NCBI GenBank assembly: GCA_964611235.1
Contig: CAZSWH010000001.1
Span: forward strand, 1-39,474
Direction of reading: 5' to 3'
DNA from: Candidatus Woesearchaeota archaeon
Lineage (GTDB): Archaea; Nanobdellota; Nanobdellia; Pacearchaeales; GW2011-AR1
DNA length: 39,474 nt
Position 1 is the stretch's first letter, and every line of letters begins with the position of its first letter. The notes below the pieces were generated by a model. That model searched no databases. It had not been told where the DNA came from and saw only the letters and a program-made list of their open reading frames with translations. Below are positions 4,736 through 29,951 of the stretch, in pieces. The position numbers were made by a program, and so were the translations under genes.

Positions 4736-6016
4736 TTATTCCCTCAATCTATCTGAAAATTCGCCTGAAATATTTTCAAGCATTTTTTCTCTGATTTTTA
4801 TTTTGTCTTTTGCCCACGCCTTATGACCGAGAACCCAAGCAAGTTTTACAAAAGCAGTTTCTGGGAGAATATCCTCAAGAAAGATTATTCCTGTTTTCTT
4901 CAATTCTCTCCCAGCCGAATAAATATTAGGATTTAATCTCCCATAAATCGTTTGTGGAGCCGCACAGAGCGTCATTCCGTTTTCAATTGCTTTTCTAATT
5001 TTAGGAAGCCAATTAAATTTTGATTCCCCAGACGGAACCTGTCCAATCCCTGTGATTTCAAAAACAATCCCTAAATATTTTTCTTTTTTATAATATTCAA
5101 TTATTGCGGGGTCTTGCCCAGGGTAAATTTTAATAAGGGCTACCTTTTCAGAATATTTAGGGTCAAAATTTATTTTTGTATCATTTCTTCTTGCATTAAA
5201 GCTTTTTAAAATTCTAAAATTATCTTTGGAGATCTCTGAAAAAGGTTCGCTATTAATAATTTTAAAAGCGTCTCTTCTTGAAGTGTGCATTTTTCGGACT
5301 TTCGTGCCAGGCATCGCGAGACAATATTTGTCATTTAAATCTTTATGCCCAATTAGTGATATTTCTGCAATATCTGAAACAGCGTATTTTGCAGAGCAAA
5401 TTAAATTCAAAGCAGCGTCGGTAGAACCCCTATCTATTGAACGCTGAGAATATGTTAAAGCGATGGGTTTATTTATTTTCTGAAGGAAAAATGAAAGTGC
5501 TGAAGAGGTATAATGCAAAAAGTCTGTTCCATGAGTTATTATTATTCCATCCACATTCTTTTCCTTAAGGAGAGATTTACAAACCTCTGCGATTTTTTTC
5601 CAATCTGAAAAAGACATATTTTCAGACCATTTCATAAATGGCTTTTCAATCCTTACAATATTGCATATATCTTTTATTTCAGGAGCAATATTAAATATTT
5701 CTTCTGCATCTGTTGATATGACTCCCCCTGTTTTTGGGTCAAGCCTTGAAGAAATTGTTCCACCAGTAATTATTATTGCAACATTTCTTAATTTCTCGTT
5801 TTCCTTTAATTCAATTTTTTTCTTTTCCTTCGGCTTTGGGATCTCAACAATCTCAGCGCCCAGAATTTCTGACTCACGAATTCCGATATTATATCCTGAA
5901 TTAAGTTTTAAAAGAATTATTTCTGGGGTGTAACTTTCTAAAATAGCTCCAGAGAACTGTCTTTCTCTTGTCTTGATGATAACCTTGTCTCCTATATTAA
6001 ATTCTTTAATTTTCAT
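4736..6016 (-). CDS. gatD: Glu-tRNA(Gln) amidotransferase subunit D
   Basis: 426 aa. An N-terminal extension precedes an asparaginase-type core with the IIITGGTISS and ITHGTDFLHYT motifs. Confidence 0.88.
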   Translation of the reverse strand: MKIKEFNIGDKVIIKTRERQFSGAILESYTPEIILLKLNSGYNIGIRESEILGAEIVEIPKPKEKKKIELKENEKLRNVAIIITGGTISSRLDPKTGGVISTDAEEIFNIAPEIKDICNIVRIEKPFMKWSENMSFSDWKKIAEVCKSLLKEKNVDGIIITHGTDFLHYTSSALSFFLQKINKPIALTYSQRSIDRGSTDAALNLICSAKYAVSDIAEISLIGHKDLNDKYCLAMPGTKVRKMHTSRRDAFKIINSEPFSEISKDNFRILKSFNARRNDTKINFDPKYSEKVALIKIYPGQDPAIIEYYKKEKYLGIVFEITGIGQVPSGESKFNWLPKIRKAIENGMTLCAAPQTIYGRLNPNIYSAGRELKKTGIIFLEDILPETAFVKLAWVLGHKAWAKDKIKIREKMLENISGEFSDRLRE

Positions 6017-6227
6017 TTTTCAACTCTTGCAGTTTTAATTTCCAATCTTCCAAAGTTAATCTTACAACATCATCCTCCTGAATTAACTTATTATTTATTA
6101 ATTTTAATAAAAGATAAGGGGCTGCACATTGCTCGCACTTTGTTAATTTACCAAACTTACAATAACCTTTTTCTTCCCATAACTTTAAACAAAATTCTAA
6201 TTCATGAATTAATTGCTGTTTGTCCAT
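6006..6227 (-). CDS. small Cys-containing hypothetical protein
   Basis: 73 aa, starting at the internal ATG at 6227 (MDKQQLIHELEFCLKLWEEKGYCKFGKLTKCEQCAAPY...). Its 3' end overlaps the gatD start by 11 nt. The longer track start at 6293 would overlap the divergent gatB-like start. Confidence 0.45.
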   Translation of the reverse strand: MDKQQLIHELEFCLKLWEEKGYCKFGKLTKCEQCAAPYLLLKLINNKLIQEDDVVRLTLEDWKLKLQELKNEN

Positions 6228-6287
6228 GCTAATGGGAAGAATTGGAAGTATAAAAAACTTATTAAATGTCAGTAATCTATTTAATCT

Positions 6288-7685
6288 ATGCAAAAAGAAG
6301 GAAAAAATTTTCCAATAAAAATTGGGCTAGAAGTTCATGGCTATCTTAACACTAAAGAAAAACTTTTTTGCAAGTGCAAGGTTTCAGAAGATGATTTGCC
6401 TAATATAAATGTCTGTCCTATCTGCACAGGTCAGCCAGGGAGCAAACCTATGGCACCAAATGAATCAGCTGTCAATAAATTAATCCAAATAGCTTTAATC
6501 CTCAAATCAAAGATAAATAAAAATTGGACTTGGCAGAGAAAACATTATAATTGGGCGGATTTGCCGAAAGGTTATCAGAACACAATTTCTGGACCTCACT
6601 CAACACCCTGTGCAGTTGGAGGAAAATTTAAAGGGATAAATATTGCAGAAGCGCATTTGGAAGAAGACCCTGCACAATGGAATCCTGAAAACGGGAAAAT
6701 AAATTATAACCGAAGCGGTTTTCCTTTAATAGAAATTGTGACAGAGCCAGAATTTTCATCAGCAGAACAAGTTGTAGAATGGTTGAAGGCTCTTATTCTT
6801 TTTTTGTTGTATATAAAATCTATAAGAAAAAACGCAGGGATAAAAGTTGATGTTAATGTTTCTACTTATGGCGACAGAGTTGAAATGAAAAACTTAAATT
6901 CTCTAGAAAAAATCCATAAGGCTATAGATTATGAAATTGCAAGGCAAAGTGAAAATTATAAAGAAAAAATTGAGCAAAAAAGAGAAACTTTGACTTTTGA
7001 TGAAAAACTTGGCAGGACAATTAAAATGAGGGAGAAAGAAGGAGCCGCAGACTATCGTTTTATTCCAGATCCTGACCTCCCTATTTTAAAAATAAATGAA
7101 AAAAAAATAAATGAAATGAAAAAAAAATTACCTGAAATGCCTGACAAGAAATTGGGTAAGTTAATTTCTAAATTTAAGATTAAAGAGAAGGATGCTAAAA
7201 TTCTTACGAAGAATCTCGAGCTTGTTGAGTTTGTTGAAGAACTCATTAATGAAAATATTAACATCAGAGATGATATATCTTGGATAACAATTGAACTTCT
7301 GAGAATTCTTAATTACAACAAGAAAACTCTTGAAGACGAAGACGTTGACATAAAACCATTGCATTTATCTGAATTGATAAAACTAGTAAATTCAAAAAAG
7401 ATAACTGTCCTGAAAGCAAAACAGATAATGAATGATTTCATCCCAAAAAGTTTTTCAGTAAAAGAGAAAGGTGACATAGATAAAATAAATGACGAGGCAG
7501 TAGGGAATTTATGCAGACAAGTTATTGATGAAAACCCGCGCATTGTTGAAGAATACAAAAATGGCAAAGAAGCGAGTTTGAATTTCCTAATAGGGCAAGT
7601 TATGAAATTATCAGGGAGAAGGGCGGACTTTAAAGTTGCGAGGGAGAAATTACTGGAGTTGATTAATTCTTTTAGAAAATTTTAA
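6288..7685 (+). CDS. Asp/Glu-tRNA amidotransferase subunit, GatB/GatE family (GatB-like in length and motifs)
   Basis: Motifs seen: GLEVHGYL, CPICTGQPGSKP, RKHYNWADLPKGYQNT, HLEEDPAQ, YNRSGFPLIEIVTEP, VDVNVS, MKNLNS, DYRFIPDPDLP, and a C-terminal YqeY-like LIGQVMKLSGRRAD. Length is 465 aa. Confidence 0.85.
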   Translation: MQKEGKNFPIKIGLEVHGYLNTKEKLFCKCKVSEDDLPNINVCPICTGQPGSKPMAPNESAVNKLIQIALILKSKINKNWTWQRKHYNWADLPKGYQNTISGPHSTPCAVGGKFKGINIAEAHLEEDPAQWNPENGKINYNRSGFPLIEIVTEPEFSSAEQVVEWLKALILFLLYIKSIRKNAGIKVDVNVSTYGDRVEMKNLNSLEKIHKAIDYEIARQSENYKEKIEQKRETLTFDEKLGRTIKMREKEGAADYRFIPDPDLPILKINEKKINEMKKKLPEMPDKKLGKLISKFKIKEKDAKILTKNLELVEFVEELINENINIRDDISWITIELLRILNYNKKTLEDEDVDIKPLHLSELIKLVNSKKITVLKAKQIMNDFIPKSFSVKEKGDIDKINDEAVGNLCRQVIDENPRIVEEYKNGKEASLNFLIGQVMKLSGRRADFKVAREKLLELINSFRKF

Positions 7686-7752
7686 TCCTTAGCATATTAA
7701 TAAGTTAACTGTTGGGAGATAGGTTTTTAAGTTTTAGAATTATCTTGTTTTT

Positions 7753-8022
7753 ATGAAATTTGAATTGGAAGATTTAGAAAAAGATTATGAGATTAATTTT
7801 GAGGAAATTGTTGAGAAAATAAAAAGCTCAGGGGCTAAATCTGTTTTGCTTCAGTTTCCCGACGGATTAAAACCATGGGCAGTTCCTATTGTAGAATTTC
7901 TTGAAAGAAAAACGAATACTCATATAAAAATTTGGCTTGGCTCGTGTTTCGGTTCTTGTGATATCCCAAAATCTGACTACGACTTGCTCGTTCAGTTCGG
8001 GCACGCAGAATGGAATGGTTAA
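7753..8022 (+). pseudogene. dph2: truncated diphthamide synthase Dph2 (N-terminal 89 codons only)
   Basis: VLLQFPDGLK, GSCFGSCD and LVQFGHA match the N-terminal part of archaeal Dph2. The ORF stops right after GHAEWNG, and no continuation is visible in any frame of the next 225 nt. Confidence 0.7.
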
Positions 8023-8061
8023 ATAAACTTTTTTAATTTCAACTAAAACTATTTCAACACA

Positions 8062-8086
8062 TTGCTCGCCAGAAATCGAACCGAGG
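8062..8086 (-). other. degenerate tRNA T-arm/acceptor fragment
   Basis: 8067..8082 (CGCCAGAAATCGAACC) matches tRNA-Ser 12800..12815 (CGCCAGGAATCGAACC) at 15/16 positions. The T-stem cannot pair and there is no 5' half. Confidence 0.5.
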
Positions 8087-8112
8087 TTTAATTCTTTATT
8101 TCGTGACCTTAG

Positions 8113-8123
8113 ACGCCCACGCC
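8113..8123 (-). repeat. 11-nt copy of the tRNA-Ser 3' acceptor end (att-like direct repeat)
   Basis: ACGCCCACGCC is identical to, and in the same orientation as, 12793..12803. That site comprises the first nt past the tRNA 3' end, the discriminator, the 3' acceptor strand and the first 2 nt of the T-stem of the intact tRNA-Ser gene. Confidence 0.6.
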
Positions 8124-8247
8124 GTACAGTTAGAAAAGGTTTAACGCCCTTTATTTTATCTTAACTCATTAAAGTAATCTGACTTTTTAAAATGAGACCG
8201 CTACTTGATTAGTAAAGAAGAGAAAAATTTTTTAAAGTTGTTCTATA

Positions 8248-8838
8248 TTAAAAGAAAAGATCTTTCTTTTGATATTTTTTTGTACTTTCTAAAAAATAAG
8301 CTATTTTAAATTTTAAAATATCATTCCAATAGATATTTTCTACTCTACAAACACCAAATTTATTCAATATTCCTTTAGTAAAGGTCGGAGGGACCCGAAT
8401 TACTATATTTTTTGTAATATTAATTTCAATTAACTCCCACAATTTAGTTAGATTTGGGGTGGTAAATTCTGGTCCTTTGGCATAAGTTCCATCCGAAGTA
8501 GTCCAACTTGGATCAAGAATTGCTACTTCTGCTTTAATTTTTTTAAGAAGTTGTTTGTTCAGAACATCCCCCAAGATAAATTGGGTCTTGTTTTCTATAT
8601 TATACATTTTAGCATTATTTTTAGCAGATATTATTTTTTTATTATTAATATCTATTCCATAAACTTTAGGGATTATTTTAGCCAATTGTATTGAAATGGT
8701 ACCAACCCCACAACAAAGTTCTACTGTATTATTAAATTTTCTTAATTGCTTAGCAATATGATGTGCAATTGGCTCAGGAGTGCTTATCTTTTTAGCTTCT
8801 GGATTAATTTCTATTGGTTTAGAAATTTTTAGACCCAT
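8248..8838 (-). CDS. class I SAM-dependent methyltransferase, exocyclic-amine (Tgs1/RsmD/Trm11-like) type
   Basis: Motif I is VELCCGVGTISIQLA, followed by VYGIDIN and NAKMYNI..K..FILGDV, with motif IV as AILDPSW (a variant of (D/N/S)PP(Y/F/W)). The start overlaps the stop of the 1235-aa gene by 10 nt. Confidence 0.75.
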   Translation of the reverse strand: MGLKISKPIEINPEAKKISTPEPIAHHIAKQLRKFNNTVELCCGVGTISIQLAKIIPKVYGIDINNKKIISAKNNAKMYNIENKTQFILGDVLNKQLLKKIKAEVAILDPSWTTSDGTYAKGPEFTTPNLTKLWELIEINITKNIVIRVPPTFTKGILNKFGVCRVENIYWNDILKFKIAYFLESTKKYQKKDLFF

Positions 8839-11800
8839 CTCAATTTCAAAATATCCTCTTTATTACCAATAATATCCCTAAATTGATTAAGTATTTTTTT
8901 GTCAAAGTCAAGTGAATAAATTCCTAAAAATGCAACATCAAGAGGTTTGTTGCTTTCTATTACTTTAGTTCTTACTTCCCAGTATCCCCTAAACCTTCTT
9001 TTGTATGAATTGAAATAAATGATTCTTAAAATCCCTACAATATCTTGGGCTAAAGCCTTTTCAGACTCATAAAACCATGCTGGATCTATAATCTTTATAG
9101 GGTCTTTATCATTTAATATTATGTTGTTTATGTTTAGGTCCCCATGTCCAAAACCTTCTTTATAACATTTAACAAGCTTTGAAAAAATATTTTTCAATAC
9201 TTTTGTTTCTAAATTAATCTTTGATTCCCTTAATACGTTTCCTTTAGCGTATTCTATAATATTTGCACAAAGATTTTTATCATAACCCAAATAGTTAGAA
9301 AAGAGGTTACTCACCTTAAAAAGTTTAGTTCCTAAAACATTTTCGCTTAAAAAATCCATGAGCCCGACTTTTACACATATTTTTGTTCCATTTCTAGAAA
9401 CACCATAAACAACAGAAAAGTTACCCTCTCCAGATATTTCTTCAACAACATATTCTTTATCAAATAAAATTATTTTTTGCCCAAGATATAATTCTTTATA
9501 AGAAGTAAAATTTGGCTCTGGAAAGATTGAAGAAAAGCGGGTGTATAATCTAATAAGATCTTGGGGGATTACCACCCCCCACTCTCCTGCTGAAAAAAGA
9601 ATTTTAGCTCCGATAATGTCCATTACTTTTTTTCTCATAAAACAAAAAATAATTCCATCTAACTCTCCAAGATACGTAACAAATTTATTTTTGGAAAAAA
9701 CAAAGGTAGAAGATCCTTTAAAAATTACATTTGATTTTTGAGAACCTCTTAAAAGTTCTTGGTAGCTCTCCTTTCTTCTATAATCTATTTTAGAGATTAA
9801 ACCAAAAGTGTCTTGCAATTTATTTAAAATATCTTTATTAGTGTGAAAGAAGTTTTTTAGTTCATTAGCTTTTTTAAGCAGATTTCTTTTTAATTGTCTG
9901 GTTATATAAGATTTGTTAATCTCCTTTAAAGCAAGAGATTCCAAATTTAGATTTTGAGGAAACTTTAAATTAATATTATGCTTTTTAGTAAATTCTAGAA
10001 TATCTTTAGCTTTAAGATTCTGAAAGTTTACCTCTGATAAAAAAATCTGGCAATCATTTTTTTGTTTTTTAGGGCCATTAAGCAAACCCCCAATTCTTGC
10101 AAAAATAAGATATAATATCTTTTCATCTATACTTCTGATCAGTTTTTTTGGAATCATATTTTCAAGATTTTCTTTAAAGAGGCTAAGGTTATAAATTTTA
10201 CAAATAGTGTCTATCAAGAACTCATTTGAAATGGTTTTTTTACTTGTTGTAATTTTTTCAAAAATATTTGATGGAAAACCATTATTACTGAAAACTATAT
10301 CAGTAAAAAGATTGTACCTAGAATGGTTGGTTAAAGGACTAAAATTTAAAAATTTTCTTTCTTTATCAAATTTGTCTTGATTTTGAAATACTAAGAGTCT
10401 ACAAAGATGGATAATTTTATTTTTAGAAGAGTCACAATTATCTTCTTCTTTATTCACTTGTTTTCTTGCCATTTTATAAACTTCTTTTATTATTTCATTA
10501 TTTTTCTGGATAAAGTTTCTTAAAAAATTATAAGCTTCCATAGTAACAAGATTACTATTTGATTTAAGGGATTTAAACAAAGTGGAAATATGTGGATTTT
10601 TATGTAATTTTTTTAAATATTTATAAGGACCTCTAGAAAAAATATTATTTCCAAAGCAAGTAGCTAATCTCTTTTTGATATTAGAAAGATTAATCCCTTC
10701 CAAATAGAAGTTTAAAGGTACAAACCACCCATGTTGGGGGCGACGCGTATCCCATAAAAGATATAATTTAGGATAGTTGTAATATACAATTCCTAAGTTC
10801 ATTAGAAGCTCTATTTGATTTAAAACTTTAGTTGACTCTTTTCTATTAGTATAAATATTTATCTCTGGAGCAGTTCCAAAAGGAGCAAATTTTTCTAAAA
10901 TAGCCTCCATCTTGTAAAAGAAATCCAAACTAGGCATTAAAGCAGATTTATTTTTGAAGATTACTTTTAATTCCTTTACCAAGAAATCTTTCAATCCAAT
11001 TTGGTTAAAGTTGGGGCTTAAGTTTCCCATAATTACTTTTAATTTTAATCTACTCTCATATCTCTCAAAATTTTTATTATCTGAAGGTCGTATTTCTGGA
11101 ATATTTTTATTAACAATCCCCCTAGAAATTATTTCAATTACATTGCCGTTCGGTTTAGATTTAACCTCTAGAGGTCTCTGATGAGGTTCTTTGATTGCAA
11201 GATTATTTCTGTTAAGAACAGAGCACAATCCTCTTATTACTTTTTCCTTCCTTTTATTGCTAATATTTCTATCTTGAAATAAAATCCTCATATTATCAAT
11301 ATCACTTGATTTTCTATGTAAAGCAGTCTTATAAAAAAAGGAACATGGCTTTGCCCATAGTGATATACTTTCTCTCAGATTTGCGTCTAACCCATCTAAA
11401 AATTCTTGTAATTCATCTATAATCTTTTTTTGATCTAACCATATTAGAGATTTGATTTTTGGAGCGATTTCAGAGTATTTTATTTCATATACTCTGTCTG
11501 GTAAAAAAATTCCAGCATTATCAAAATATTCTATAAATTGTTTATTTATTTGAAAAATTAGTCTTAATAGCTTAGATTCATTATCAAATTTGTCATAAAA
11601 TTCTCCAAATATATAATAATTATCAGAAAATCTTTCTTTTCTAGAAAAAAGATAATTTAATTGTTTATTCTTCGAAATAAGAATTTCAAGATATTTAATT
11701 AATTCTCCATAAAATAAGGAATCTCCAAAAAAGGAAAGATCATTAGAAAGAGAACTTCTAAAAAGAGGTGTTTGCCCATGGAATTTCTTGGAGAATAGAC

Positions 11801-12536
11801 TAAAAACTAATTTTCCTTTTAAAGCCATATAATGTGAGAGGCCACAATCAACACCAAAATATAACTGATATTGATTAATTGTTTTTATAGCTTCCTTTAG
11901 AGAATATGTGAACTTACACTTGACAAAAGGACAATTTTTTAATATAAATTCATTGATTTTATTTTTAGAGTTCTTTTGGCAAATTAATTTGATTTTAAAT
12001 CTATTAAGATCTAAAAATTCTAGAGATTTTTTAATTTCTTCTAAATTTATATCAAGCCTTTCTTCATTATTTTCTCCAACATTAAAATTGAGAATAGCAT
12101 TTTTCTTGGAAAGATTTAACTTTGGAACTTTTTGTGGAAGATAAACAAAACCAAGAAAGTTAGTTATTTCTTCTACTCTTTCTTCCTCAAAAAGAGAAGA
12201 AAATTTTCTCTCTCTATTAAAATCTTTAAACTTTATAAAAACTACTTCCTTATTCTTACTATTTCTGTAGATTTCTATAATATCACCATTAATTTTTGGT
12301 GAAGGAAGATCCTTACGTGTTAATAAGATCTTTAGACTCTTTTTACTTGAAGAACCTCTCTTCATAAAAGGAAGAAGAAGGAAATCCTCGTTTCCTTTAA
12401 AATAAATTTTCTTTCCAAATTTATGATGAATAGAGTTTATTAGGGGTAATTTAAATATCCAATCTCCTAATTTATTTGTTGATTCAACAATTTCAATAGA
12501 ATCATATTTTGATAACCAATTGTTCTTATTAAGCAT
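8829..12536 (-). CDS. 1235-aa multidomain protein: N-terminal GT9 (heptosyltransferase)-like domain, about 770 aa of unknown function, C-terminal Kdo/WaaP/RIO/Bud32-like kinase domain
   Basis: N-terminus: LGDWIFKLPLINSIHHKF and (aa 211-250) YSLKEAIKTINQYQLYFGVDCGLSHYMALKGKLVFSLFS resemble the GT9 signature. C-terminus (from aa 1032): G-loop GEGNFSVVYG, ICVKV lysine strand, catalytic GHGDLNINNIIL, then IKIIDPAW. No motif was recognised in aa 260-1030. Confidence 0.8.
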   Translation of the reverse strand: MLNKNNWLSKYDSIEIVESTNKLGDWIFKLPLINSIHHKFGKKIYFKGNEDFLLLPFMKRGSSSKKSLKILLTRKDLPSPKINGDIIEIYRNSKNKEVVFIKFKDFNRERKFSSLFEEERVEEITNFLGFVYLPQKVPKLNLSKKNAILNFNVGENNEERLDINLEEIKKSLEFLDLNRFKIKLICQKNSKNKINEFILKNCPFVKCKFTYSLKEAIKTINQYQLYFGVDCGLSHYMALKGKLVFSLFSKKFHGQTPLFRSSLSNDLSFFGDSLFYGELIKYLEILISKNKQLNYLFSRKERFSDNYYIFGEFYDKFDNESKLLRLIFQINKQFIEYFDNAGIFLPDRVYEIKYSEIAPKIKSLIWLDQKKIIDELQEFLDGLDANLRESISLWAKPCSFFYKTALHRKSSDIDNMRILFQDRNISNKRKEKVIRGLCSVLNRNNLAIKEPHQRPLEVKSKPNGNVIEIISRGIVNKNIPEIRPSDNKNFERYESRLKLKVIMGNLSPNFNQIGLKDFLVKELKVIFKNKSALMPSLDFFYKMEAILEKFAPFGTAPEINIYTNRKESTKVLNQIELLMNLGIVYYNYPKLYLLWDTRRPQHGWFVPLNFYLEGINLSNIKKRLATCFGNNIFSRGPYKYLKKLHKNPHISTLFKSLKSNSNLVTMEAYNFLRNFIQKNNEIIKEVYKMARKQVNKEEDNCDSSKNKIIHLCRLLVFQNQDKFDKERKFLNFSPLTNHSRYNLFTDIVFSNNGFPSNIFEKITTSKKTISNEFLIDTICKIYNLSLFKENLENMIPKKLIRSIDEKILYLIFARIGGLLNGPKKQKNDCQIFLSEVNFQNLKAKDILEFTKKHNINLKFPQNLNLESLALKEINKSYITRQLKRNLLKKANELKNFFHTNKDILNKLQDTFGLISKIDYRRKESYQELLRGSQKSNVIFKGSSTFVFSKNKFVTYLGELDGIIFCFMRKKVMDIIGAKILFSAGEWGVVIPQDLIRLYTRFSSIFPEPNFTSYKELYLGQKIILFDKEYVVEEISGEGNFSVVYGVSRNGTKICVKVGLMDFLSENVLGTKLFKVSNLFSNYLGYDKNLCANIIEYAKGNVLRESKINLETKVLKNIFSKLVKCYKEGFGHGDLNINNIILNDKDPIKIIDPAWFYESEKALAQDIVGILRIIYFNSYKRRFRGYWEVRTKVIESNKPLDVAFLGIYSLDFDKKILNQFRDIIGNKEDILKLRWV

Positions 12537-12793: not shown

Positions 12794-12874
12794 CGCCCAC
12801 GCCAGGAATCGAACCTGGGCGCCCCGAAGGGCCGAGATTTCCAGTCTCGTGCAATACCACTATGCGACATGGGC
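12794..12874 (-). tRNA. tRNA-Ser (anticodon GGA)
   Basis: The minus strand folds as GCCCATG TC GCA-TAGTGGTAT-TGC A CGAGA-CTGGAAA-TCTCG GCCCTTCGGGGCGC CCAGG-TTCGATT-CCTGG CGTGGGC G. It has a 7-bp acceptor stem, a long variable arm (GCCC/GGGC stem) and no encoded CCA. Confidence 0.9.
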
Positions 12875-17468: not shown

Positions 17469-17538
17469 TCTTAAAATCAGAGTCTATAAAAAGGTCTAAA
17501 AACTGAAACTATTTAAATCCTGTTAAGTTGTGAAAACT

Positions 17539-17868
17539 ATGAAAGAGGTAAAAAGGCCCTGGGGTAGTTTTAAGCAGTTTGTTAAAAATAAAAAATGCAC
17601 TGTTAAGGTTCTTGAAATAAACTCCAAACAGGAATTAAGTCTTCAGGTTCATAAAAATAGGGAAGAAAATTGGTATTTCTTTGATAAGGCAATTGTTCAA
17701 GTGGGAAATAAAAAAAAGAAAGTCAGCGAAGGAGAGATAATTAAAATTCCTAAGAAATCTCCACATAGGATTATCGCGGGAAATAAAAAGGTAAGAGTTT
17801 TAGAAATTTCTTTTGGTAAATTTGACGAGAAAGACGAAATAAGATTAGAGGATAAATATGGGAGATAA
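17539..17868 (+). CDS. cupin-fold mannose-6-phosphate isomerase (type II PMI C-terminal-domain-like)
   Basis: KRPWGSF....., ELSLQVHKNREENWYF, IPKKSPHRI, LEISFGKFDEKDEIRLEDKYGR match the ManC-type PMI cupin. ATG 17539 is preferred over GTG 17530; a TATTTAAAT box lies about 25 nt upstream. Confidence 0.8.
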   Translation: MKEVKRPWGSFKQFVKNKKCTVKVLEINSKQELSLQVHKNREENWYFFDKAIVQVGNKKKKVSEGEIIKIPKKSPHRIIAGNKKVRVLEISFGKFDEKDEIRLEDKYGR

Positions 17869-18676
17869 AATTATCGCAATAGATCTCGGCGGAACAAATT
17901 TAAGAGTTGCTCTTGTGAAAGACAACAAAATTTTAAAATATATTAAAAAACCGACGCCAAAGAGTAAGGATGAACTTCTGAAAGGGATTATTGATTCAAT
18001 AAATCCTCTGTTTGATAAAGATATAAAAGGAATTGGTGTGGCTTCTGCAGGACCGTTAGAAAAAGGAATTATAAAAAATCCTCCAAATCTCCCCTTAAAG
18101 AATTTTAATTTGAAAATTTTTTTAGAAAGAAAATTTAAGATAAAAACAGAAATTGCAAATGATGCCAATTGTGTTGCGATTGCAGAGACAAAATTAGGAT
18201 GTAAAAAGAAAAATTTTATTGTTCTGACTATAGGGACTGGAATTGGAGGAGGGATTATTGTAAATAGGAAACTTTATTCCGGGAAAGGACTTGCAGGAGA
18301 ATTAGGGCATATAGTTCTTAATAATGGAAAAGATTTTGAGTCACTCGCAGCAGGGAAGCGATTAAAAGAACTAACAATGAAAAATTTTGGAAAAGAATTT
18401 CTCGTTGCAGATTTAATAAAAATTAATAGTAAAAAATCAAATGAAATTTTGCAGGAATTAAGCAAATATCTTGGTCAGGGAATTGCCTCTTTGATTAATG
18501 TTTTTGACCCAGAGATTGTTATTCTAAGCGGAGGAGTAAAAGAATCTGGAAAAAAATATTTAAAGATGATTAGGGAGAACGCGAAAAAATATATAATTCT
18601 CCAGAGAAAAACTAAAATTATTTGGAGCAAACTAGAACATCCAGGAATTCTCGGAGCAAGTTTATTAGTAAAATGA
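17858..18676 (+). CDS. ROK-family sugar kinase (short form lacking the CxCGxxGC zinc motif)
   Basis: Motifs seen: IIAIDLGGTNLRVALV, NDANCVAIAE, TIGTGIGGGII, GELGHIV. Overlaps the cupin gene by 11 nt. Confidence 0.8.
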   Translation: MGDKIIAIDLGGTNLRVALVKDNKILKYIKKPTPKSKDELLKGIIDSINPLFDKDIKGIGVASAGPLEKGIIKNPPNLPLKNFNLKIFLERKFKIKTEIANDANCVAIAETKLGCKKKNFIVLTIGTGIGGGIIVNRKLYSGKGLAGELGHIVLNNGKDFESLAAGKRLKELTMKNFGKEFLVADLIKINSKKSNEILQELSKYLGQGIASLINVFDPEIVILSGGVKESGKKYLKMIRENAKKYIILQRKTKIIWSKLEHPGILGASLLVK

Positions 18677-19509
18677 AAGTAAAAAAAGTAAAAGCACCTG
18701 TTAGAATTGATTTTGCCGGCGGAACAACAGATATAAAATATTTTGCTGAGAGATACGGAGGAGCTGTCCTAAATTGCTCAATAAATAAATACGTTTACGG
18801 AGAATTAATTTCAGATGATAAAAAGGTTTCTTTAGAATATCACGCAGATATTCCAACTTCTTCTGGTTTAGGAACAAGCGGCGCTATGAATTTGGTCTGG
18901 CTCGCTCTGATAAGCAAAATAAAAGATAAAAAAGGGCTCGCTGAAAATGTTTACAAACTTGAGCAAAGCCAAGGATTAGTCGGAGGAAAACAAGACCAAT
19001 ATGCAGCTGCTCTTGGAGGAATAAATTTAATGTTATTCAATAAAAATAAAGTAACAATAAAAAAAGTTAAAATGAATAAAAAAATAATTCAGAAGTTAGA
19101 AGATTCTCTTGTGATTCTTTATGTAGGGAAACCTCATTTTTCAGGAGATGCAAATAAATTAATGATAGATAATTTGAAAAAAGAAACTAACGTAAAAGCT
19201 CTGCTTGAAATTAAAAAAATTGCTTTAGAAATGAAAAAAGCTCTTGAAAATTCCAATTTAGAAAAATTCGCTGAACTGCTCAATAAGGAAACAGGACAAA
19301 GAAGACAATTAGCAAAAGAAACAATCCCAAAGTTGGTGCAGGATTATATTGATAAAGGAATGAAAAATGGAGCAGTGGCTGCAAAGGTCTGCGGCTCTGG
19401 AAACGGCGGGAGCATTTTATTCTTTGGGGACAAAAAGAAATTAAAAAGAACTTTTAAAAAAGGGATTATAGATTTCAAATTTGATTGGAAAGGTTTGCAG
19501 TGGTTTTAA
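18673..19509 (+). CDS. GHMP-family sugar kinase (HddA / heptose-7-phosphate-kinase-like)
   Basis: APVRIDFAGGTTDIKYF, GHMP motif II PTSSGLGTSGA, and a C-terminal KVCGSGNGGS. ATG 18673 overlaps the ROK stop as ATGA, so it is preferred over the track start at 18622. Confidence 0.8.
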   Translation: MKVKKVKAPVRIDFAGGTTDIKYFAERYGGAVLNCSINKYVYGELISDDKKVSLEYHADIPTSSGLGTSGAMNLVWLALISKIKDKKGLAENVYKLEQSQGLVGGKQDQYAAALGGINLMLFNKNKVTIKKVKMNKKIIQKLEDSLVILYVGKPHFSGDANKLMIDNLKKETNVKALLEIKKIALEMKKALENSNLEKFAELLNKETGQRRQLAKETIPKLVQDYIDKGMKNGAVAAKVCGSGNGGSILFFGDKKKLKRTFKKGIIDFKFDWKGLQWF

Positions 19510-20506: not shown

Positions 20507-21634
20507 CTAAAACTCCCCGTAAATCTCAAAAGTTTTTTTTGCAATAATGCTCCATCCATTGACCTTCTTGACATATTCCTCTGCATTCTTTGAAAATTTA
20601 TCTCTCATTTTTTTATTCCTGAGAAGTTTTATAATTGCTTTATAGAACTTGGCGCGGTTTTTTACAGCCAGTCCTGCTTTACTGTTTCTTATCTCTGCTC
20701 CAAGACCTTCTATATCCGTCGCTATTATAGGTGCTCCTACTGAAAGTCCGTGTGCGAGAACTCCTGACTGGCTTTCGCTTTTGTATGGAAGCACAAGGAT
20801 ATCAAAACTCTTTAATTTTCTGTAAAAAGCCATTTCATTATAATCTCTTACAGAAATATCTATATTCTTGCTTACAGGACTTTCCATAATCGATTGAAAT
20901 ACTTTTTCCAAATAAATTCTCGTTTCTTCTGCTGATTCTGGTTTTAATTCAAGAGAAAGTTTTGCGTTAGGAAATTTTTTGACTACTTTTGGCCATTGGC
21001 TAATTAGAGTTCTATATCCCTTTCTATCACTCGCGAGACCTGCAGAGCCAACAATTAAATCTGATAAAAAATAACCAAAACCTTTTTTCGCTTCATTTTT
21101 ATTAATTTTTATATCTTCTCTTGAGCCGTGAGGTAAAACATAAACATTGTTTGGCTTCCACCCTATATTTTCTGGGAGCAATTCTTTTTGGTAGTTCTCA
21201 TGCAAAATCCCTGCAGAAAGTTCTTTTAAACTGTTGCTTACAAATATTGAAAAATTTTTGTTTAACTTTTTATAAACACTGTGATAAGTCATCACAACAG
21301 GAATTTTAATTTCTTTTATCATCTTAATTAATTCTATGACTCTCTCATTATGGTCTCCATAAGTTTCGTAAAGCCCGTATTCATGTTGTATATGAACAAT
21401 GTCAGGCATTTCTTTTTTTATGATTTTGAGCACATTGTAGTGCCACTTTTTATTTTTCAAATTAATAATAGGATAATCAGATTTTTTAGCGTCTGTGTGA
21501 GCAATAATTTTCACTGAGAAATTTTTTTTATTTTTCTCTGCAAAGTTTTTCAAAGCAGAAATATAATGTCTAGAATAATAAGCAATACCGCACGAACGAG
21601 GCAGATAACTTGAAATCCACACCACTTTTACCAT
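20507..21634 (-). CDS. GT4-family (GT-B, group 1) glycosyltransferase
   Basis: 375 aa. The C-terminal half has the ...PYKSESQSGVLAHGLSVGAPIIATDIEG... (E-x7-E-like) signature, and N-terminal CGIAYYS. Confidence 0.8.
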   Translation of the reverse strand: MVKVVWISSYLPRSCGIAYYSRHYISALKNFAEKNKKNFSVKIIAHTDAKKSDYPIINLKNKKWHYNVLKIIKKEMPDIVHIQHEYGLYETYGDHNERVIELIKMIKEIKIPVVMTYHSVYKKLNKNFSIFVSNSLKELSAGILHENYQKELLPENIGWKPNNVYVLPHGSREDIKINKNEAKKGFGYFLSDLIVGSAGLASDRKGYRTLISQWPKVVKKFPNAKLSLELKPESAEETRIYLEKVFQSIMESPVSKNIDISVRDYNEMAFYRKLKSFDILVLPYKSESQSGVLAHGLSVGAPIIATDIEGLGAEIRNSKAGLAVKNRAKFYKAIIKLLRNKKMRDKFSKNAEEYVKKVNGWSIIAKKTFEIYGEF

Positions 21635-21720
21635 AAACTAAAAAAACTATTTTCTTTTATATATCTTTTGGTAATTCTCTGTTTCCAAATATCTGCATAC
21701 AATAATAATTAGCTTTTTTT

Positions 21721-21746
21721 TATTTTAATATTTACCATCTTCTTTT
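21721..21746 (-). repeat. 26-nt duplicate of the translation start region of the 21753..22211 gene
   Basis: TATTTTAATATTTACCATCTTCTTTT is identical to 22194..22219. On the minus strand it reads AAAAGAAG-ATG-GTA-AAT-ATT-AAA-ATA and opens only a 9-codon ORF (MVNIKIKKS*). Confidence 0.9.
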
Positions 21747-21752
21747 TGCATG

Positions 21753-22211
21753 CTAATTACCATAAATTACATTAATTCCGGCTGTGTCTTTATCATTTCC
21801 AATTTTATATTTAATTTTAAGTGACTGAGAGCCTTTTAAATTACTTAAATAAGAAATCTCTTCCCAGCTTTCCGAATGACTAGACTCTACAAATTTTACA
21901 CCATCACCTATAATTTGCAGAGAAGTATAACAACCGCCAAGCCCCCCTTTTTTGCATTTAATCTGAATACGAAAAATTTCCCATGGACCTTCCAAAGAAA
22001 GAAACTCAACAAAATCTTCACTTTTGGTGCCTCCGCCTTTTCCATGTAACTGAAGATAGGCAGAATTGCCACCATCAACTTCTCCAGCATCATGCCCATG
22101 AACATTTGGGTCTCCACTTCCATAAGCCATTACATAAGCAACAGCTATCAAAAGAACCATAACTCCTGCTAAAAACCATAAACCTTTTTTTTCTATTTTA
22201 ATATTTACCAT
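21753..22211 (-). CDS. hypothetical membrane-anchored/secreted protein (class III-like N-terminus)
   Basis: 152 aa. MVNIKIEKKGLWFLAGVMVLLIAVAYVMAYG is followed by a Gly/His-rich segment and a beta-rich C-terminus. Confidence 0.6.
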   Translation of the reverse strand: MVNIKIEKKGLWFLAGVMVLLIAVAYVMAYGSGDPNVHGHDAGEVDGGNSAYLQLHGKGGGTKSEDFVEFLSLEGPWEIFRIQIKCKKGGLGGCYTSLQIIGDGVKFVESSHSESWEEISYLSNLKGSQSLKIKYKIGNDKDTAGINVIYGN

Positions 22212-22219
22212 CTTCTTTT
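22194..22219 (-). repeat. 26-nt repeat partner (genuine start region of the 152-aa gene)
   Basis: Identical to 21721..21746. The flanking T-runs extend the similarity to about 33 nt with one indel. Confidence 0.9.
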
Positions 22220-22301
22220 ATATTTTATATGAAATTGTTGTTTAAAAACTTTTCGTTGTTTATTTTTTGGTTCATTAAAGGACTTTGAAAGCACTAAAAA
22301 T

Positions 22302-24518
22302 TTATTTCTTTTTTCTATTTAATCTTTTCTCTTCTAAAGATAATCTTGCTATAAGATAAGACAATGTTGATTCTGTTCCCTGATTTAAATTTATAGAATT
22401 TTCTGATAGTCCGTCGTAACATCCTCCTGTGTTCTCGTCATACATTATTTGTTTTAAATGATTTCTTCCTAAAAACCAATTGAAACTAAGAACTGCCCTT
22501 TTGTAATATTCTTCTTCTTTTGTTATTTCATAAGCAATAAGATAGGTCTGCACAAGATAAGAAGCGTCAATAGGTTGCTGGTCAAAGTAAGCTCTTTCTC
22601 CGTTCCGATTGAACCATCCGTTTTGTCCAATAAGAAAAAGGCATTCATTTTTAAAGAGAACTTCTGTCAGGAAGTTAAGAGTATCCTTCGCGATATTAAG
22701 GTATCTTTCATCCCGGATAACCTTATACGCAAAAAATAGTGACTCAGGAATTTTAGAATTAGCATAAGTTAAATAACTCTCAATCCATTGCCAATCTTTA
22801 GAAGAATTATGGTCATATAAGTCAGATAAAGAATCTGCTAATTTTTTAATCTTATCAAAATATTTTTGATTCTGGAATTTATTGTAATAATAACATAATC
22901 CGATTATTGAAAAGGCAAATGCTCTTGGGGAATTTAAAACATTAATTATTTCAGAAGATTTATCAAAAATTTTTCTCGCTTTGCAGACCATCTCTGAATC
23001 TTTTGAGTTATCTATTAAAAATCCTAAAGCCCATAATGTTCTACCGAAAGCATCTTCACTCGTCTTTATTTCTTTATTTTGTAAAAAATCATTGAACTTT
23101 CCATTTTCCATTTGCATTCTTTCAATAAAGTTGAGATAAACTTTTGAAAGATTAAAAGATAAGGAATCATTAAAAAGTTTATAATGTAAAACTGTTGTTA
23201 TTAATGCTCTTGCATTATCATCTAATGTGTATCCTGATTCATAATCCGGAGTTGAAAATTTTGAAAACTGAAGAATTCCGAAATCTGTCGTTGATTTCTG
23301 TATGTGGCTTAGTTTTATTGCAGGATATTCCTCAGTTATATCTTCTCTTAATTTTATGATGCTGTTAAAAATATTCAGATATTTAGCAGAGACATTTAAC
23401 CATGTCATCTTTCTAGTATAGGAATATGCACTTTTTTCAATTTCTAATCTCAAATTTTTATTAGAAAGAATTTTGTCAATCTCCTTTGCATAAGATTCTG
23501 AATTCTTTAATTTAACTAAAATTCCTCTACCATTTGATAAGATTTCTTTTGCATAAGTGCTTGGTGTAGAAACAACACATCTGCCGCATCCCATAGCATA
23601 AGATAATGTCCCACTTACTATTTGGTTTTTCTCCAGATTAGCACAAACATAAATGTCTGAAGCCAAGAGATAATAAATTATTTCTTTGAGACTAAGGTAT
23701 TTATTATAAAATTTAACATTCTTCTTAAGACCAAGATTTTTTATCTTTTGCATAAGCTCTTTTCTGTAAGATTCACCTTCTTCTTCCCTAACTACTGGGT
23801 GTGTCTCACCAATTATAAGATAAATAAGATTAGGATATTTTTTTACCAACGCTGGCATTGCTTCTATCATATACTCAACTCCTTTTCCTCGGCTCAATAA
23901 ACCAAAAGTAGACAAAACAATTTTTTTATGGAGGTTTAATTTTTCCTTAAATTTTTCCTGACTGCTAAATCTGACATTTGGAATGCCATGATGAACCACA
24001 TGTATTTTTTCTCTTTCAATATCATAATCTTTATTTAGTATTTTTATCGCACTATTTGCCATTACTATAATCGCGGAAACTTTTGACGCAATAAATTTAA
24101 CGATTTTTTTCTTTAATTCATCTGGCTTGGGCAGAATACTGTGAAAAGTAATTACAACAGGTTTCTTAATTGTTTCTAAAAAAGGAATAAGATAACTCCC
24201 ATATTCCCCTCCAAAAATTCCAAACTCATGCTGTATACACACAAGTTTGATATCTTCAGATTTGTTTATTTCCTTAGCTATATTAATAAAATCCCCTATG
24301 TCCTCCCTATTCACTTGAAAAATCACTTTTTTATTATAATTATAAATTCCTTCTTCATCATTTATTGCAATAACTTCAGACTTAAGTTTTGGATTAAATC
24401 TTTTATTCATTGAGTTAATAAGGTCTTCAGTAAAGGTAGCTATACCGCACTCTCTCGGAGGGAAGTTGCCGAAAAAACAAATTTTTGATTTAGGATTACC
24501 CTTCTTTTTAATTTTCAT
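22302..24518 (-). CDS. GT4 glycosyltransferase fused to a C-terminal domain of about 340 aa (possibly alpha/alpha-toroid)
   Basis: 738 aa. The N-terminal approximately 390 aa has CGIATFTEDL, HEFGIFGG, GLLSRGKGVEY, and an E-x7-E-like GTLSYAMGCGRCVVSTP. The C-terminal part (GILQFSKFSTPDYESGYTLDDNARAL..., FGRTLWALGFLI) is a separate, helix-rich domain. Confidence 0.8.
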   Translation of the reverse strand: MKIKKKGNPKSKICFFGNFPPRECGIATFTEDLINSMNKRFNPKLKSEVIAINDEEGIYNYNKKVIFQVNREDIGDFINIAKEINKSEDIKLVCIQHEFGIFGGEYGSYLIPFLETIKKPVVITFHSILPKPDELKKKIVKFIASKVSAIIVMANSAIKILNKDYDIEREKIHVVHHGIPNVRFSSQEKFKEKLNLHKKIVLSTFGLLSRGKGVEYMIEAMPALVKKYPNLIYLIIGETHPVVREEEGESYRKELMQKIKNLGLKKNVKFYNKYLSLKEIIYYLLASDIYVCANLEKNQIVSGTLSYAMGCGRCVVSTPSTYAKEILSNGRGILVKLKNSESYAKEIDKILSNKNLRLEIEKSAYSYTRKMTWLNVSAKYLNIFNSIIKLREDITEEYPAIKLSHIQKSTTDFGILQFSKFSTPDYESGYTLDDNARALITTVLHYKLFNDSLSFNLSKVYLNFIERMQMENGKFNDFLQNKEIKTSEDAFGRTLWALGFLIDNSKDSEMVCKARKIFDKSSEIINVLNSPRAFAFSIIGLCYYYNKFQNQKYFDKIKKLADSLSDLYDHNSSKDWQWIESYLTYANSKIPESLFFAYKVIRDERYLNIAKDTLNFLTEVLFKNECLFLIGQNGWFNRNGERAYFDQQPIDASYLVQTYLIAYEITKEEEYYKRAVLSFNWFLGRNHLKQIMYDENTGGCYDGLSENSINLNQGTESTLSYLIARLSLEEKRLNRKKK

Positions 24519-24625: not shown

Positions 24626-25222
24626 ATGAAAAAATTTGTTTTAATTATCATATTCTTGATTCTTCTGGTTCTATCTCTAACTTTGTTCTTTTTTAGAGAT
24701 TCATTTTTGGATTTAAAAAATAATTTTCCCGTCGGAAGCAAGTTTGAATCCGGAAAAACAAGTTTTGGTGATGAGGAAAAATCTTCTGATGACAATAATC
24801 AGACCAATGGAGGAAGTGAGATTGAAGAAACAGAATCTTTAGGAGTAGAAGGGATTAGAAATGGAAATGATGGAGAAAGAGAGTCACCATTGAACGAAAG
24901 TCCTGAAAGAGAATTAGAGTGTATTCTTATCCGTCCCGGAAATCTCCCTGATATAATTTGTAGTGTGAACTACATAAGTCCAAATGAAGTTTCAATAAAA
25001 ATAAAAAACGAAATTGGGAAAAAGATTGGGGTAGTAATAAGAATTGAAAAATGTGGTTTAGAGATTTTTAAGATGATAGAAAACAATGAGGAAAAGGATT
25101 TTGTTTTTCCGTGCAACAACAGAGAAAATTTTTTCAACGAGGAAGTTTTAATATCATATATTATTGATAATTCTGAAAAAGTTGATATCGGAGGATTCAT
25201 TCAGGGTTTTGTGTCATATTAA
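24626..25222 (+). CDS. hypothetical secreted/anchored protein
   Basis: 198 aa. Has an N-terminal TM/signal segment MKKFVLIIIFLILLVLSLTLFFF, an acidic linker and a Cys-containing C-terminal domain. Its 3' end overlaps the convergent pilin-like gene by 9 nt. Confidence 0.55.
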   Translation: MKKFVLIIIFLILLVLSLTLFFFRDSFLDLKNNFPVGSKFESGKTSFGDEEKSSDDNNQTNGGSEIEETESLGVEGIRNGNDGERESPLNESPERELECILIRPGNLPDIICSVNYISPNEVSIKIKNEIGKKIGVVIRIEKCGLEIFKMIENNEEKDFVFPCNNRENFFNEEVLISYIIDNSEKVDIGGFIQGFVSY

Positions 25223-26140
25223 ATCTCTTGCTCCGTAAATATCCAGATGAGGTTCGTCCAATCTGAACCATGATGGCATCCCTTCAATGAGATAAGGCTC
25301 CTCCTCACTATTCGAAAAATAAATGTAATCTACGACTGATTTTTCATGTATAATCAATCCTTGAGAACTTAAATCAGGCAGGTAAACCAACGATTCTATC
25401 CCATTGGCATTCGCGCCAGTTTTTCCTTCTAGCCTATCCAGAAAACTCGGAGCGAGAGGGGATGCAATATAATAAGAATTATTTACATGCAATAAAAGAT
25501 TTGAAATATTTTTTTCAGAAACAAAAGGCTCATAAGGAGTCTGTATTATTTTATTCACTATAAGCCCGTTAGTATTGATTATATAAAAAGGGTCTTCAAA
25601 GTTTATTATTTCTATTACGGAAGAAATTCTTTCTGTTTTATTCCAAGACGCGAGGTCACTTTTGTCCTTGACAAAAATTTGGATTTCCATTTCTATATTG
25701 ATGTTCCACGGGTCATCCTGAGTAACGGAAATATTTTTTAGAGAGTAATTCACAATCAAATTCATTTTGTTTCCGAATTCAGATATTCGCGAGTTCAGTT
25801 CTGGCAATTTATAGCCTTCCATTAGATTAAGAGTTTCATTTTTTATTGTTCCATTTAGAATGGTTTCTCTTATTGAGTCCTCAGCGTCTTCGAGAAAAGA
25901 TCCTGTTGAAGTTATGTAATCTTCAAGAGAGAGTATAGCCCTATAACCAGATATATAACCCTGGCGAGAGATGTCTTCTTCCAGAGAGAAAACAAAATTA
26001 TTTAGAGTAGTTATCCTTCTGTTTATTGCGCTTCTGTCTTGAATAATAAAATAAAAACTGAAGCTAATTAAAAAAAATGACAGCAAAGTTATTGCTATGA
26101 TAGTAAAGAAAATTCCTTTTTTGTTTGAAATCATCTCCAT
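25214..26140 (-). CDS. pilin-like protein 5 (class III signal peptide)
   Basis: 308 aa. N-terminus MEMISNKKGIFFTIIAITLLSFFLISF. Its start overlaps the upstream gene by 10 nt. Confidence 0.7.
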   Translation of the reverse strand: MEMISNKKGIFFTIIAITLLSFFLISFSFYFIIQDRSAINRRITTLNNFVFSLEEDISRQGYISGYRAILSLEDYITSTGSFLEDAEDSIRETILNGTIKNETLNLMEGYKLPELNSRISEFGNKMNLIVNYSLKNISVTQDDPWNINIEMEIQIFVKDKSDLASWNKTERISSVIEIINFEDPFYIINTNGLIVNKIIQTPYEPFVSEKNISNLLLHVNNSYYIASPLAPSFLDRLEGKTGANANGIESLVYLPDLSSQGLIIHEKSVVDYIYFSNSEEEPYLIEGMPSWFRLDEPHLDIYGARDLI

Positions 26141-29949: not shown

Positions 29950-29951
29950 GA

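Follow-up and report, generated by a model that had tools for sequence, protein, structure and literature searches.

A glycosyltransferase family 9-like protein fused to a kinase-like module in an archaeon belongs to a rare family found in bacteria of the candidate phyla radiation

Textbooks treat glycosyltransferase family 9 (GT9) enzymes and ADP-heptose as markers of lipopolysaccharide (LPS) inner-core assembly in Gram-negative bacteria, where the kinases WaaP and WaaY phosphorylate LPS heptose added by GT9 enzymes. The autotransporter heptosyltransferases TibC and AAH act on a non-LPS acceptor, a protein serine, and WbdD of Escherichia coli O9a is a bifunctional kinase-methyltransferase that caps an O-antigen glycan built by partner glycosyltransferases. 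Bacteria of the candidate phyla radiation (CPR) and archaea are not known to make 3-deoxy-D-manno-octulosonic acid (Kdo)-lipid A. Here, we describe a giant open reading frame (ORF) in a 39,474-nt stretch of DNA (the window) from a Candidatus Woesearchaeota archaeon (contig CAZSWH010000001.1 of assembly GCA_964611235.1). Its product consists, in this order, of a GT9-like domain, a family-specific middle region, and a protein-kinase-like C-terminal module (Table 1). We conclude that the giant ORF is a real, rare, and unannotated enzyme gene. The GT9-like domain and the middle region together form the core of a family that is otherwise bacterial in its gene neighborhoods, and both terminal domains of the giant ORF product fall in known superfamilies.

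The same 3708-nt ORF is intact on five further contigs from different samples with at most 3 nt differences, and its neighborhood is constant in the six assemblies. This recurrence in independent assemblies argues that the giant ORF is neither a chimera nor a sequencing artifact; the 0 to 3 nt differences among the six copies are too few to read purifying selection. A preliminary description made from the letters of the window alone had quoted a series of motifs from the protein and had placed the DNA in an archaeon. Every motif is present where it had been reported: KLGDWIFKLPLINSI at residues 22 to 36 and FGVDCGLSHY at residues 227 to 236 in the N-terminal domain, and GEGNFSVVYG (1036 to 1045), ICVKV (1053 to 1057), GHGDLNINNIIL (1130 to 1141), and IIDPAW (1149 to 1154) in the C terminus. 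The archaeal host is likewise borne out by the rest of the contig, which carries an archaeal/eukaryotic-type uS10, a Dph2 fragment, GatD, Rpo7, a class III signal peptide protein, and type IV pilus/archaellum-like genes. With a maximum of 1.3 in a 19-residue Kyte-Doolittle window, the protein has no predicted transmembrane segment, and is thus expected to be soluble. ARAGORN places a 96-nt tRNA-Leu(TAA) at 9693 to 9788 on the minus strand inside the giant ORF; Rfam gave no match there even at E ≤ 1, and in such AT-rich coding sequence the call is almost certainly spurious. A full-text literature search turned up no description of such a protein.

Several lines of evidence identify the N-terminal domain as GT9-like, in agreement with the pattern noted in the preliminary description. 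First, a profile of 12 family N termini aligned with a profile of E. coli WaaC, WaaF, WaaQ, and WaaU plus two GT9 proteins (P0029 and P0030) over 232 columns at 97.5% probability and an expectation value (E) of 6.2e-12 (hhalign). Second, an AlphaFold2 model of residues 1 to 870 (mean predicted local distance difference test [pLDDT] 82; predicted template-modeling score [pTM] 0.70) was compared to the Protein Data Bank (PDB) with Foldseek, and the top matches of the N-terminal domain were all GT9 proteins: WaaC came first (E 3.5e-6, target template-modeling [TM] score 0.55), followed by a Veillonella GT9 protein (3tov), the protein heptosyltransferase TibC, and WaaF. Third, in an exhaustive search of 1.84 billion representative proteins, the weakest matches of the family profile were bona fide PF01075 proteins. 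By contrast, scans with single sequences remain below threshold: the window protein scores 16.2 to 16.9 bits (E 0.007) against the PF01075 cut-off of 22 and 12.5 bits against 185 for TIGR02193 (heptosyltransferase I), and sub-threshold PF01075 matches occur in 8 of 18 family members. Fourth, the residues D13, K192, D261, and H266 of WaaC align with D25, R160, D230, and H235 of the giant ORF product. These four positions are conserved in the family alignment, except that P0014 has Glu in place of D25 and P0007 has Glu in place of D230. D25, in the sequence KLGDW, is the putative catalytic base, and R160 together with G228-V-D230-C-G-L-S-H235 would form the donor motif. The N-terminal domain is, therefore, a divergent GT9-type GT-B glycosyltransferase domain that retains the equivalents of the base and the donor-binding residues and looks catalytically intact.

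The domain shares with WaaC and WaaF (PF01075; PDB 2h1f, 6dfe, and 1psw) the GT-B fold, the G-D loop, and the D-x-G-L-x-H donor motif. It differs from them in being 12 to 15% identical, in falling below the Pfam cut-off, in its fusion to 560 further residues, and in its acceptor-side (N-terminal) half, which in the AlphaFold2 model is shorter than in WaaC and carries a four-strand beta-meander insert at residues 58 to 113. Because the hosts, where identified, are not known to make Kdo-lipid A, an LPS acceptor is implausible, and the acceptor should differ from that of WaaC and WaaF. One candidate is a protein. TibC and AAH (PDB 4rap and 4rb4) have the same heptosyltransferase-type GT-B fold, and the match to TibC is significant (E 2e-4), as would be expected if the giant ORF product were an O-heptosyltransferase of the TibC/AAH kind that works with a protein kinase and a HemK/PrmA-type methyltransferase on a surface or secreted protein or a ribosomally synthesized peptide. 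However, the fit to TibC is lower than that to WaaC (target TM ∼0.38 versus 0.55), and no autotransporter substrate lies near the giant ORF. We consider modification of a protein or peptide unlikely overall, and return to it below with the evidence from the kinase and the gene neighborhoods.

The middle region is as strongly conserved in family alignments as the transferase domain, and is found in all family members. Its invariant motifs are [CS]S399-x12-D412-x-D414, P-H452-Q453, R496-x-K-x-K500, F553-G554, and W595-x2-RRPQHGWF-x-P607, and S659 and E667 are also invariant. As had been anticipated, it contains no recognizable P-loop, nuclease, or helicase: no Pfam, NCBIfam, or PADLOC model matched it, and in searches of PDB sequences with the family profiles (hmmsearch), we found GT9 matches or sub-threshold noise only. 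A separate AlphaFold2 model of the region is confident (pLDDT 77.5, pTM 0.82), and Foldseek gave no significant structural relative for it, the best matches having E 0.55 in PDB and 0.53 in BFVD.

For one part of the middle region, at residues ∼365 to 475, three independent sub-threshold signals hint at a DNA polymerase beta (Pol-beta)-type nucleotidyltransferase. The predicted order of elements, alpha1-beta1-[CS]S-alpha2-DxD/beta2-alpha3-beta3, fits a nucleotidyltransferase unit, and the [CS]S-x12-D-x-D motif lies on this alpha-beta-alpha-beta-alpha-beta unit in register with ANT(3'')/AadA and an MNT. In the streptomycin adenylyltransferase ANT(3'') (6sxj), the helix, strand, Ser, DxD, and next helix are all in register, with a non-significant E of 0.23 (hmmsearch); in the MNT, SDxD and the following helix align at only 2 to 7% probability (hhalign); and the best Foldseek matches of the middle region, the cGAS/DncV-like nucleotidyltransferase (CD-NTase) CdnC (E 0.55) and FAM46C, are non-significant as well. 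Compared with the hG[GS]-x9-13-Dh[DE]h pattern of Pol-beta nucleotidyltransferases, the region departs in two ways: a different residue stands in place of the Gly of G[GS], and the family alignment contains no conserved third carboxylate, an invariant His-Gln standing there instead. We regard the nucleotidyltransferase-like unit as possible, a lead rather than a finding.

This lead bears on a second alternative, in which the giant ORF product modifies nucleotides or nucleic acids, possibly as part of a mobile defense or conflict module with a nucleotidyltransferase-like middle. In it, this domain, a base-amino methyltransferase, a kinase, a NUDIX protein, and a nucleoside monophosphate kinase-like protein would jointly produce or alter a nucleotide, an RNA or DNA end, or a signaling nucleotide. 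Apart from the motif in register and the CdnC and FAM46C folds, such a role would suit the methyltransferase encoded next to the giant ORF, a full-length homolog of Tgs1, which is a guanine-N2 nucleotide/cap methyltransferase; the best PADLOC match of this methyltransferase and of that fused in the bacterial relative P0015 is mad2, a MADS defense methyltransferase. The NUDIX and adenylate-kinase-like partners of bacterial family members, described below, also work on nucleotides, and the family is patchy, rare, and, in the window, linked to a tRNA. Against this stand the facts that the evidence for a nucleotidyltransferase is all below significance and lacks the third carboxylate, that the core has no PADLOC match (the only matches being generic ones to methyltransferases and kinases), that it is absent from viral contigs, and that no nuclease or other effector is present. 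Moreover, the GT9-like domain with its intact catalytic residues and an HldC-like neighbor in one lineage would have no role. We judge this alternative to be quite improbable.

Within the family, the C-terminal module has a counterpart only in P0015. The last ∼315 residues of the two proteins are 27% identical (BLASTP, E 4e-32) and share a conserved ∼100-residue leader and the tail ILxIIYFNx[YF][KR][KR]RFxxYW, both common to these two proteins only. The key kinase residues, namely the Gly-rich loop (G1036-x-G-x-x-S-x-V, residues 1036 to 1045), K1056, H1131-G-D1133-x4-N1138, and D1151, are invariant between them and align with the same motifs of cyclin-dependent kinases (CDKs). Between the Gly-rich loop and the DFG-equivalent Asp, a two-sequence profile of the window protein and P0015 matched CDK-type kinases (E 3.4e-7) and Rio2 (E 1.5e-4) in PDB, supporting the small protein-kinase-like C terminus that had been proposed. 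P0015 alone matches Pkinase at E 1.2e-6 (28.6 bits versus a cut-off of 31.7). The window protein alone matches Bud32 (E 4.6e-4) and Kdo kinase (E 9.3e-4) and, weakly, RIO1 and Pkinase, in all cases over the catalytic loop; its kinase domain scores 11.9 to 14.4 bits with Pfam kinase models, below their cut-offs. Profile searches thus lift both terminal assignments above chance, although the single-sequence Pfam and NCBIfam cut-offs were missed.

Like RIO/Bud32 and WaaP/WaaY/KdkA, the module has a G-loop, a VAIK-type Lys, HGD-x4-N, a metal-binding Asp, and a short tail; it differs from these in best matching generic CDK-type kinases and in its own leader and tail. A specific affinity to the Kdo/WaaP kinases, as had been suggested, was not sustained: a comparison with WaaP plus WaaY gave 5.9% probability over 73 columns confined to the catalytic loop (hhalign), the Kdo kinase model scored 18.3 bits versus a cut-off of 142, and generic eukaryotic-type protein kinase and RIO models score best. 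Only ∼85 residues follow D1151. This length, which would hardly accommodate an activation segment or a complete C-lobe, marks the module as a minimal kinase domain of the RIO/Bud32/APH style, and one that retains the ATP-binding Lys, the catalytic Asp and Asn, and the metal-binding Asp. For a protein- or peptide-modifying enzyme, the best profile matches to protein kinases are a point in favor, while the ∼85 residues after D1151 are too few for a substrate-binding lobe and the catalytic loop reads HGD..N rather than HRD.K..N.

The family is rare and unannotated. A word search of 5.8 billion clustered proteins returned only two other clusters, and the exhaustive hmmsearch gave 26 matches, 20 of which had E < 1e-30. 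The alignment used here comprises 12 full-length members including the window protein, all of which have the core of GT9-like domain and middle region. Ten of these, at 890 to 921 residues, consist of the core only and are without a kinase, while P0015 (1448 residues) joins an N-terminal MTS/HemK2-like methyltransferase, the core, and the C-terminal kinase on one polypeptide. Accordingly, the three-domain fusion noted earlier is real in the window gene, but the evolutionary unit is the GT9-like plus middle protein of ∼900 residues, and the kinase module is a lineage-specific addition common to one bacterial protein only, P0015. A search of species-representative genomes with a trimmed alignment located the family in two Candidatus Saccharibacteria and one Candidatus Azambacteria; the other family loci bear bacterial genes (GreA, RecA, DnaG, and sigma-70), and no relatives were found in IMG/VR viral contigs. 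Of all members, the window protein diverges most. In a neighbor-joining tree of 792 columns, it lies on a long isolated branch, and its pairing as sister to P0015 has only 27% bootstrap support; the tree gives no direction of transfer.

The distribution of the kinase bears on a third alternative, in which the GT9-like domain would transfer no sugar and instead bind an ADP-sugar or nucleotide as a non-catalytic regulator of the fused kinase, in the way that binding of ADP-heptose activates ALPK1 in animals. A ligand-binding GT-B cleft fused to a kinase is the architecture that such a sensor would have, and a NUDIX partner could set the level of the ligand. Yet the core must work alone in the ten kinase-free members, and throughout the family neither the catalytic-base Asp nor the donor motif has changed beyond the conservative Glu substitutions in P0014 and P0007, making a sensor kinase highly improbable.

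In the bacterial members, the core is part of a conserved cassette. Genes for a NUDIX hydrolase and an adenylate-kinase-like protein, both orthologous between loci, adjoin the core in each of the eight distinct bacterial loci for which flanking sequence is available. The NUDIX hydrolases are 29 to 52% identical to one another, and their best weak affinity is to NudE, an "ADP compounds hydrolase"; they are putative ADP-sugar pyrophosphatases. The P-loop protein (∼200 residues, 27 to 46% identity) is a full-length homolog of archaeal-type adenylate kinases (PDB 3h86, E 2e-10). That this partner in the bacterial loci L001, L002, L010, L012, and L017 to L021 resembles archaeal-type AdkA rather than bacterial Adk is a second cross-domain element. 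In four of the eight loci, an orthologous Methyltransf_11/25 gene lies immediately upstream of the core start, overlapping the core in three.

The cassette also provides a link to ADP-heptose. In the related loci L021 and L022, a gene for an HldC/RfaE-domain-II-like heptose-1-phosphate adenylyltransferase (170.7 bits versus a cut-off of 181.5) lies directly beside the NUDIX gene. HldC-type adenylyltransferases make ADP-heptose, the GT9 donor, and in having such a gene, these loci are alike to the WaaC/WaaF system. L021 (positions 5772 to 10912) and L022, from a CPR bacterium of Hainich groundwater, are the fullest version of the cassette, with the HldC-like and NUDIX genes on one strand and the methyltransferase, core, and adenylate-kinase-like genes on the other. 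An MNT-HEPN toxin-antitoxin pair is located just downstream of this cassette.

Other bacterial neighbors are variable, and some favor the protein- or peptide-modifying enzyme introduced above. Homologs of radical-SAM/SPASM maturases are encoded in L001 and L012 and TauD-like hydroxylases in L002 and L010, and the methyltransferase fused in P0015 is nearest to the protein methyltransferases HemK2/MTQ2 and PrmC. In L012 (5607 to 7313), two small ORFs of 57 and 79 residues, which could encode precursor peptides, lie between the core and the maturase-like gene. However, the maturase and TauD genes each occur in only two of the eight loci, and the methyltransferase in the window is Tgs1-like rather than HemK-like.

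The window and P0015 loci contain neither a NUDIX nor a P-loop gene nearby, whereas both possess a methyltransferase and the kinase fused to the core; in the window, tblastn with the partner proteins of L001, L002, L010, and L012 detected no NUDIX or adenylate-kinase-like partner at E ≤ 0.01. This gene content would be compatible with one kinase having been replaced by another between lineages. Co-occurrence with a methyltransferase is found in the window, in P0015, and in the four bacterial loci, but the three kinds of partner are not orthologous to one another.

In the window, the coupling of the giant ORF to a methyltransferase gene is confirmed, the start of the latter overlapping the stop of the former by 10 nt. 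The methyltransferase scores 52.8 bits with PF09445 (cut-off 22) and matches trimethylguanosine synthase (PDB 3egi and 3gdh) at E 1e-16 over residues 11 to 184 of 196. On the minus strand, the order is tRNA-Ser, giant ORF, methyltransferase, and tRNA remnants, and the same island arrangement is present in all contigs of the population, none of which thus offers an empty site for comparison. The description of this segment as a tRNA-flanked island holds for one side, where a true tRNA-Ser is found (57.1 bits with Rfam RF00005, and called by ARAGORN), but the other flank has only degenerate copies of its 3' end. These are GGCGTGGGCGT at 8113 to 8123, an exact 11-mer; GGTTCGATTTCTGGCG at 8067 to 8082, a 16-mer with 15 of 16 matches; and CAATGTG at 8058 to 8064, a copy of the flank. 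The 16-mer is found at two places in the window only, with a chance expectation of 0.00; the remnants near 8070 were rejected as a tRNA by ARAGORN with introns allowed and by Rfam. They are in shuffled order, the acceptor piece lying upstream of the T-arm piece, which points to scars of two consecutive integration or excision events and not to a single clean att site.

The 4.7-kb segment has a GC content of 27.0% (window, 30.7%), and the giant ORF 26.7%, compared with 32.0 ± 2.5% in the remaining ORFs; the segment contains neither an integrase nor any other mobility gene. Because this low-GC segment is bounded by tRNA-Ser on one side and by 3'-end remnants of that tRNA on the other, the archaeal copy was probably acquired horizontally; integration at tRNA-Ser is a likely, though unproven, route for the giant ORF and the methyltransferase. 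An ORF of 89 residues at 7753 to 8022 on the plus strand corresponds to the N-terminal part of the ∼300-residue Dph2 family model and ends ∼40 nt before the tRNA remnants. It is truncated in all related contigs, and may be either a pseudogene or a gene disrupted when a rearrangement introduced the island.

Table 1. Features of the giant ORF and the surrounding island, in coordinates of the window
Feature	Position	Strand	Details
Giant ORF	8829..12536	minus	1235 aa, ATG start, 3708 nt
GT9-like GT-B glycosyltransferase domain	11637..12509	minus	aa ~10-300
Family-specific middle region	9927..11597	minus	aa ~314-870, ~560 aa; conserved in all family members
Candidate Pol-beta-type nucleotidyltransferase-like unit	11112..11444	minus	aa ~365-475; sub-threshold hints
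C-terminal module common with P0015	8841..9782	minus	aa 919-1232; ~100-aa leader and minimal protein-kinase-like domain (aa ~1026-1235)
Tgs1-like (Methyltransf_15) class I methyltransferase	8248..8838	minus	196 aa, motif IV D-P-S-W
tRNA-Ser(GGA)	12794..12874	minus	directly upstream of giant ORF; proximal island boundary
Degenerate copies of tRNA-Ser 3' end and 3' flank	8058..8123	minus	distal att-like boundary of 4.7-kb segment

Altogether, we tentatively propose, with confidence that falls somewhat short of even, that the giant ORF product is a soluble multidomain enzyme of an accessory pathway that uses an ADP-activated sugar, either ADP-heptose or a close relative. This proposal is based on the GT9 homology and catalytic residues, the fold and motifs of the kinase, the common core, the fusion in P0015, the partner genes, the HldC-like neighbor, the features of the island, and the distribution of the family. 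From the domain identities and their conservation, we infer that the GT9-like domain would move the sugar of an ADP-sugar onto an acceptor held by the middle region, which may have a nucleotidyl- or phospho-transfer site of its own, as its invariant Ser-x12-Asp-x-Asp could indicate. The fused kinase would phosphorylate the sugar either before its activation or, in the manner of WaaP and WaaY, once it has been transferred, and the cotranslated methyltransferase would put on a methyl cap, like WbdD. In CPR bacteria, the core would have separate partners: NUDIX, adenylate-kinase-like, and, in one lineage, HldC-like proteins to manage the ADP-sugar and adenine nucleotides, and often a methyltransferase.

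In bringing together a kinase-like domain, a class I methyltransferase, and a glycosyltransferase, the family is reminiscent of the WbdD system, and P0015 has all three on one chain. This analogy is a conceptual one: the domain order differs, a coiled-coil ruler is absent, and the methyltransferases vary between loci.

Several observations weigh against our proposal. For both terminal domains, the window protein and P0015 score below the cut-offs curated by Pfam. The connection to ADP-heptose comes from the neighborhood of one lineage, no ADP-heptose pathway gene adjoins the window gene, and a GHMP kinase ∼6 kb from the giant ORF resembles the heptose-7-phosphate kinase HddA, its best match, at the family level only (123 bits versus a cut-off of 600). 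The radical-SAM/SPASM and TauD-like genes, variable extras as they are, hint at peptide substrates. The methyltransferases are Tgs1-like in the window, HemK2/MTS-like where fused in P0015, and of the Methyltransf_11/25 type in the CPR operons, and since they are non-orthologous, the methylation step could be coincidental or lineage specific; moreover, the Tgs1-like type is known for nucleotide or RNA-cap substrates and not for sugars. Finally, the hints of a nucleotidyltransferase, while agreeing in register, are statistically unsupported.

The ADP-sugar reading has a bolder form, which we regard as possible but doubtful. Here, the middle region would be a new enzyme fold or a very divergent nucleotidyltransferase and, with the GT9-like domain, would define a hitherto undescribed ADP-heptose-type glycoconjugate pathway in cells that lack LPS. 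CPR bacteria and DPANN-like archaea would pass this pathway between them and use it to decorate a surface or host-contact molecule of these episymbionts, and a kinase would have been recruited to it twice, as a fused protein-kinase-like module in some lineages and as a separate adenylate-kinase-like protein in others. The preliminary description had likewise speculated that the module could be self-contained and could act on a cell-surface or host-interaction component.

Elsewhere in the window, a sugar operon at 17530 to 19509 on the plus strand encodes a phosphomannose isomerase (PMI)-type cupin, a ROK sugar kinase, and the GHMP kinase mentioned above; this operon, 6 kb away, could feed a sugar-1-phosphate or nucleotide-sugar pool for the GT9-like enzyme. 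On the minus strand, 20507 to 24518 contains genes for two GT4-type glycosyltransferases, the second of which (738 residues) has a C-terminal region weakly like glycoside hydrolase family 88. An archaeal type IV pilus/archaellum-like locus at 28898 to 34031 encodes a class III signal-peptide protein, a PilB-like ATPase, two T2SSF-type membrane proteins, and a KaiC/ArlH-like ATPase, and several ORFs beside it (25214 to 28526) have no Pfam match. At 4736 to 7685, an archaeal-type GatD gene is divergent to a gene for a 465-residue protein that scores as bacterial-type GatB above the NCBIfam cut-off, and not as GatE, which is an unusual pairing for an archaeon.

Measured against the libraries and literature searched, the architecture, the 560-residue region without relatives, the conserved cassette, and the distribution over CPR bacteria plus one archaeon are undescribed. 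If our proposal is true, the family would represent ADP-sugar-based modification chemistry outside LPS biology, and a concrete gene family common, across domains, to CPR bacteria and a small-genome archaeon. Its middle region may be a new fold or enzyme family. As one soluble protein with clear, mutable active-site residues, the giant ORF product would provide a handle on how symbionts about which little is understood assemble or decorate a component of their cells.

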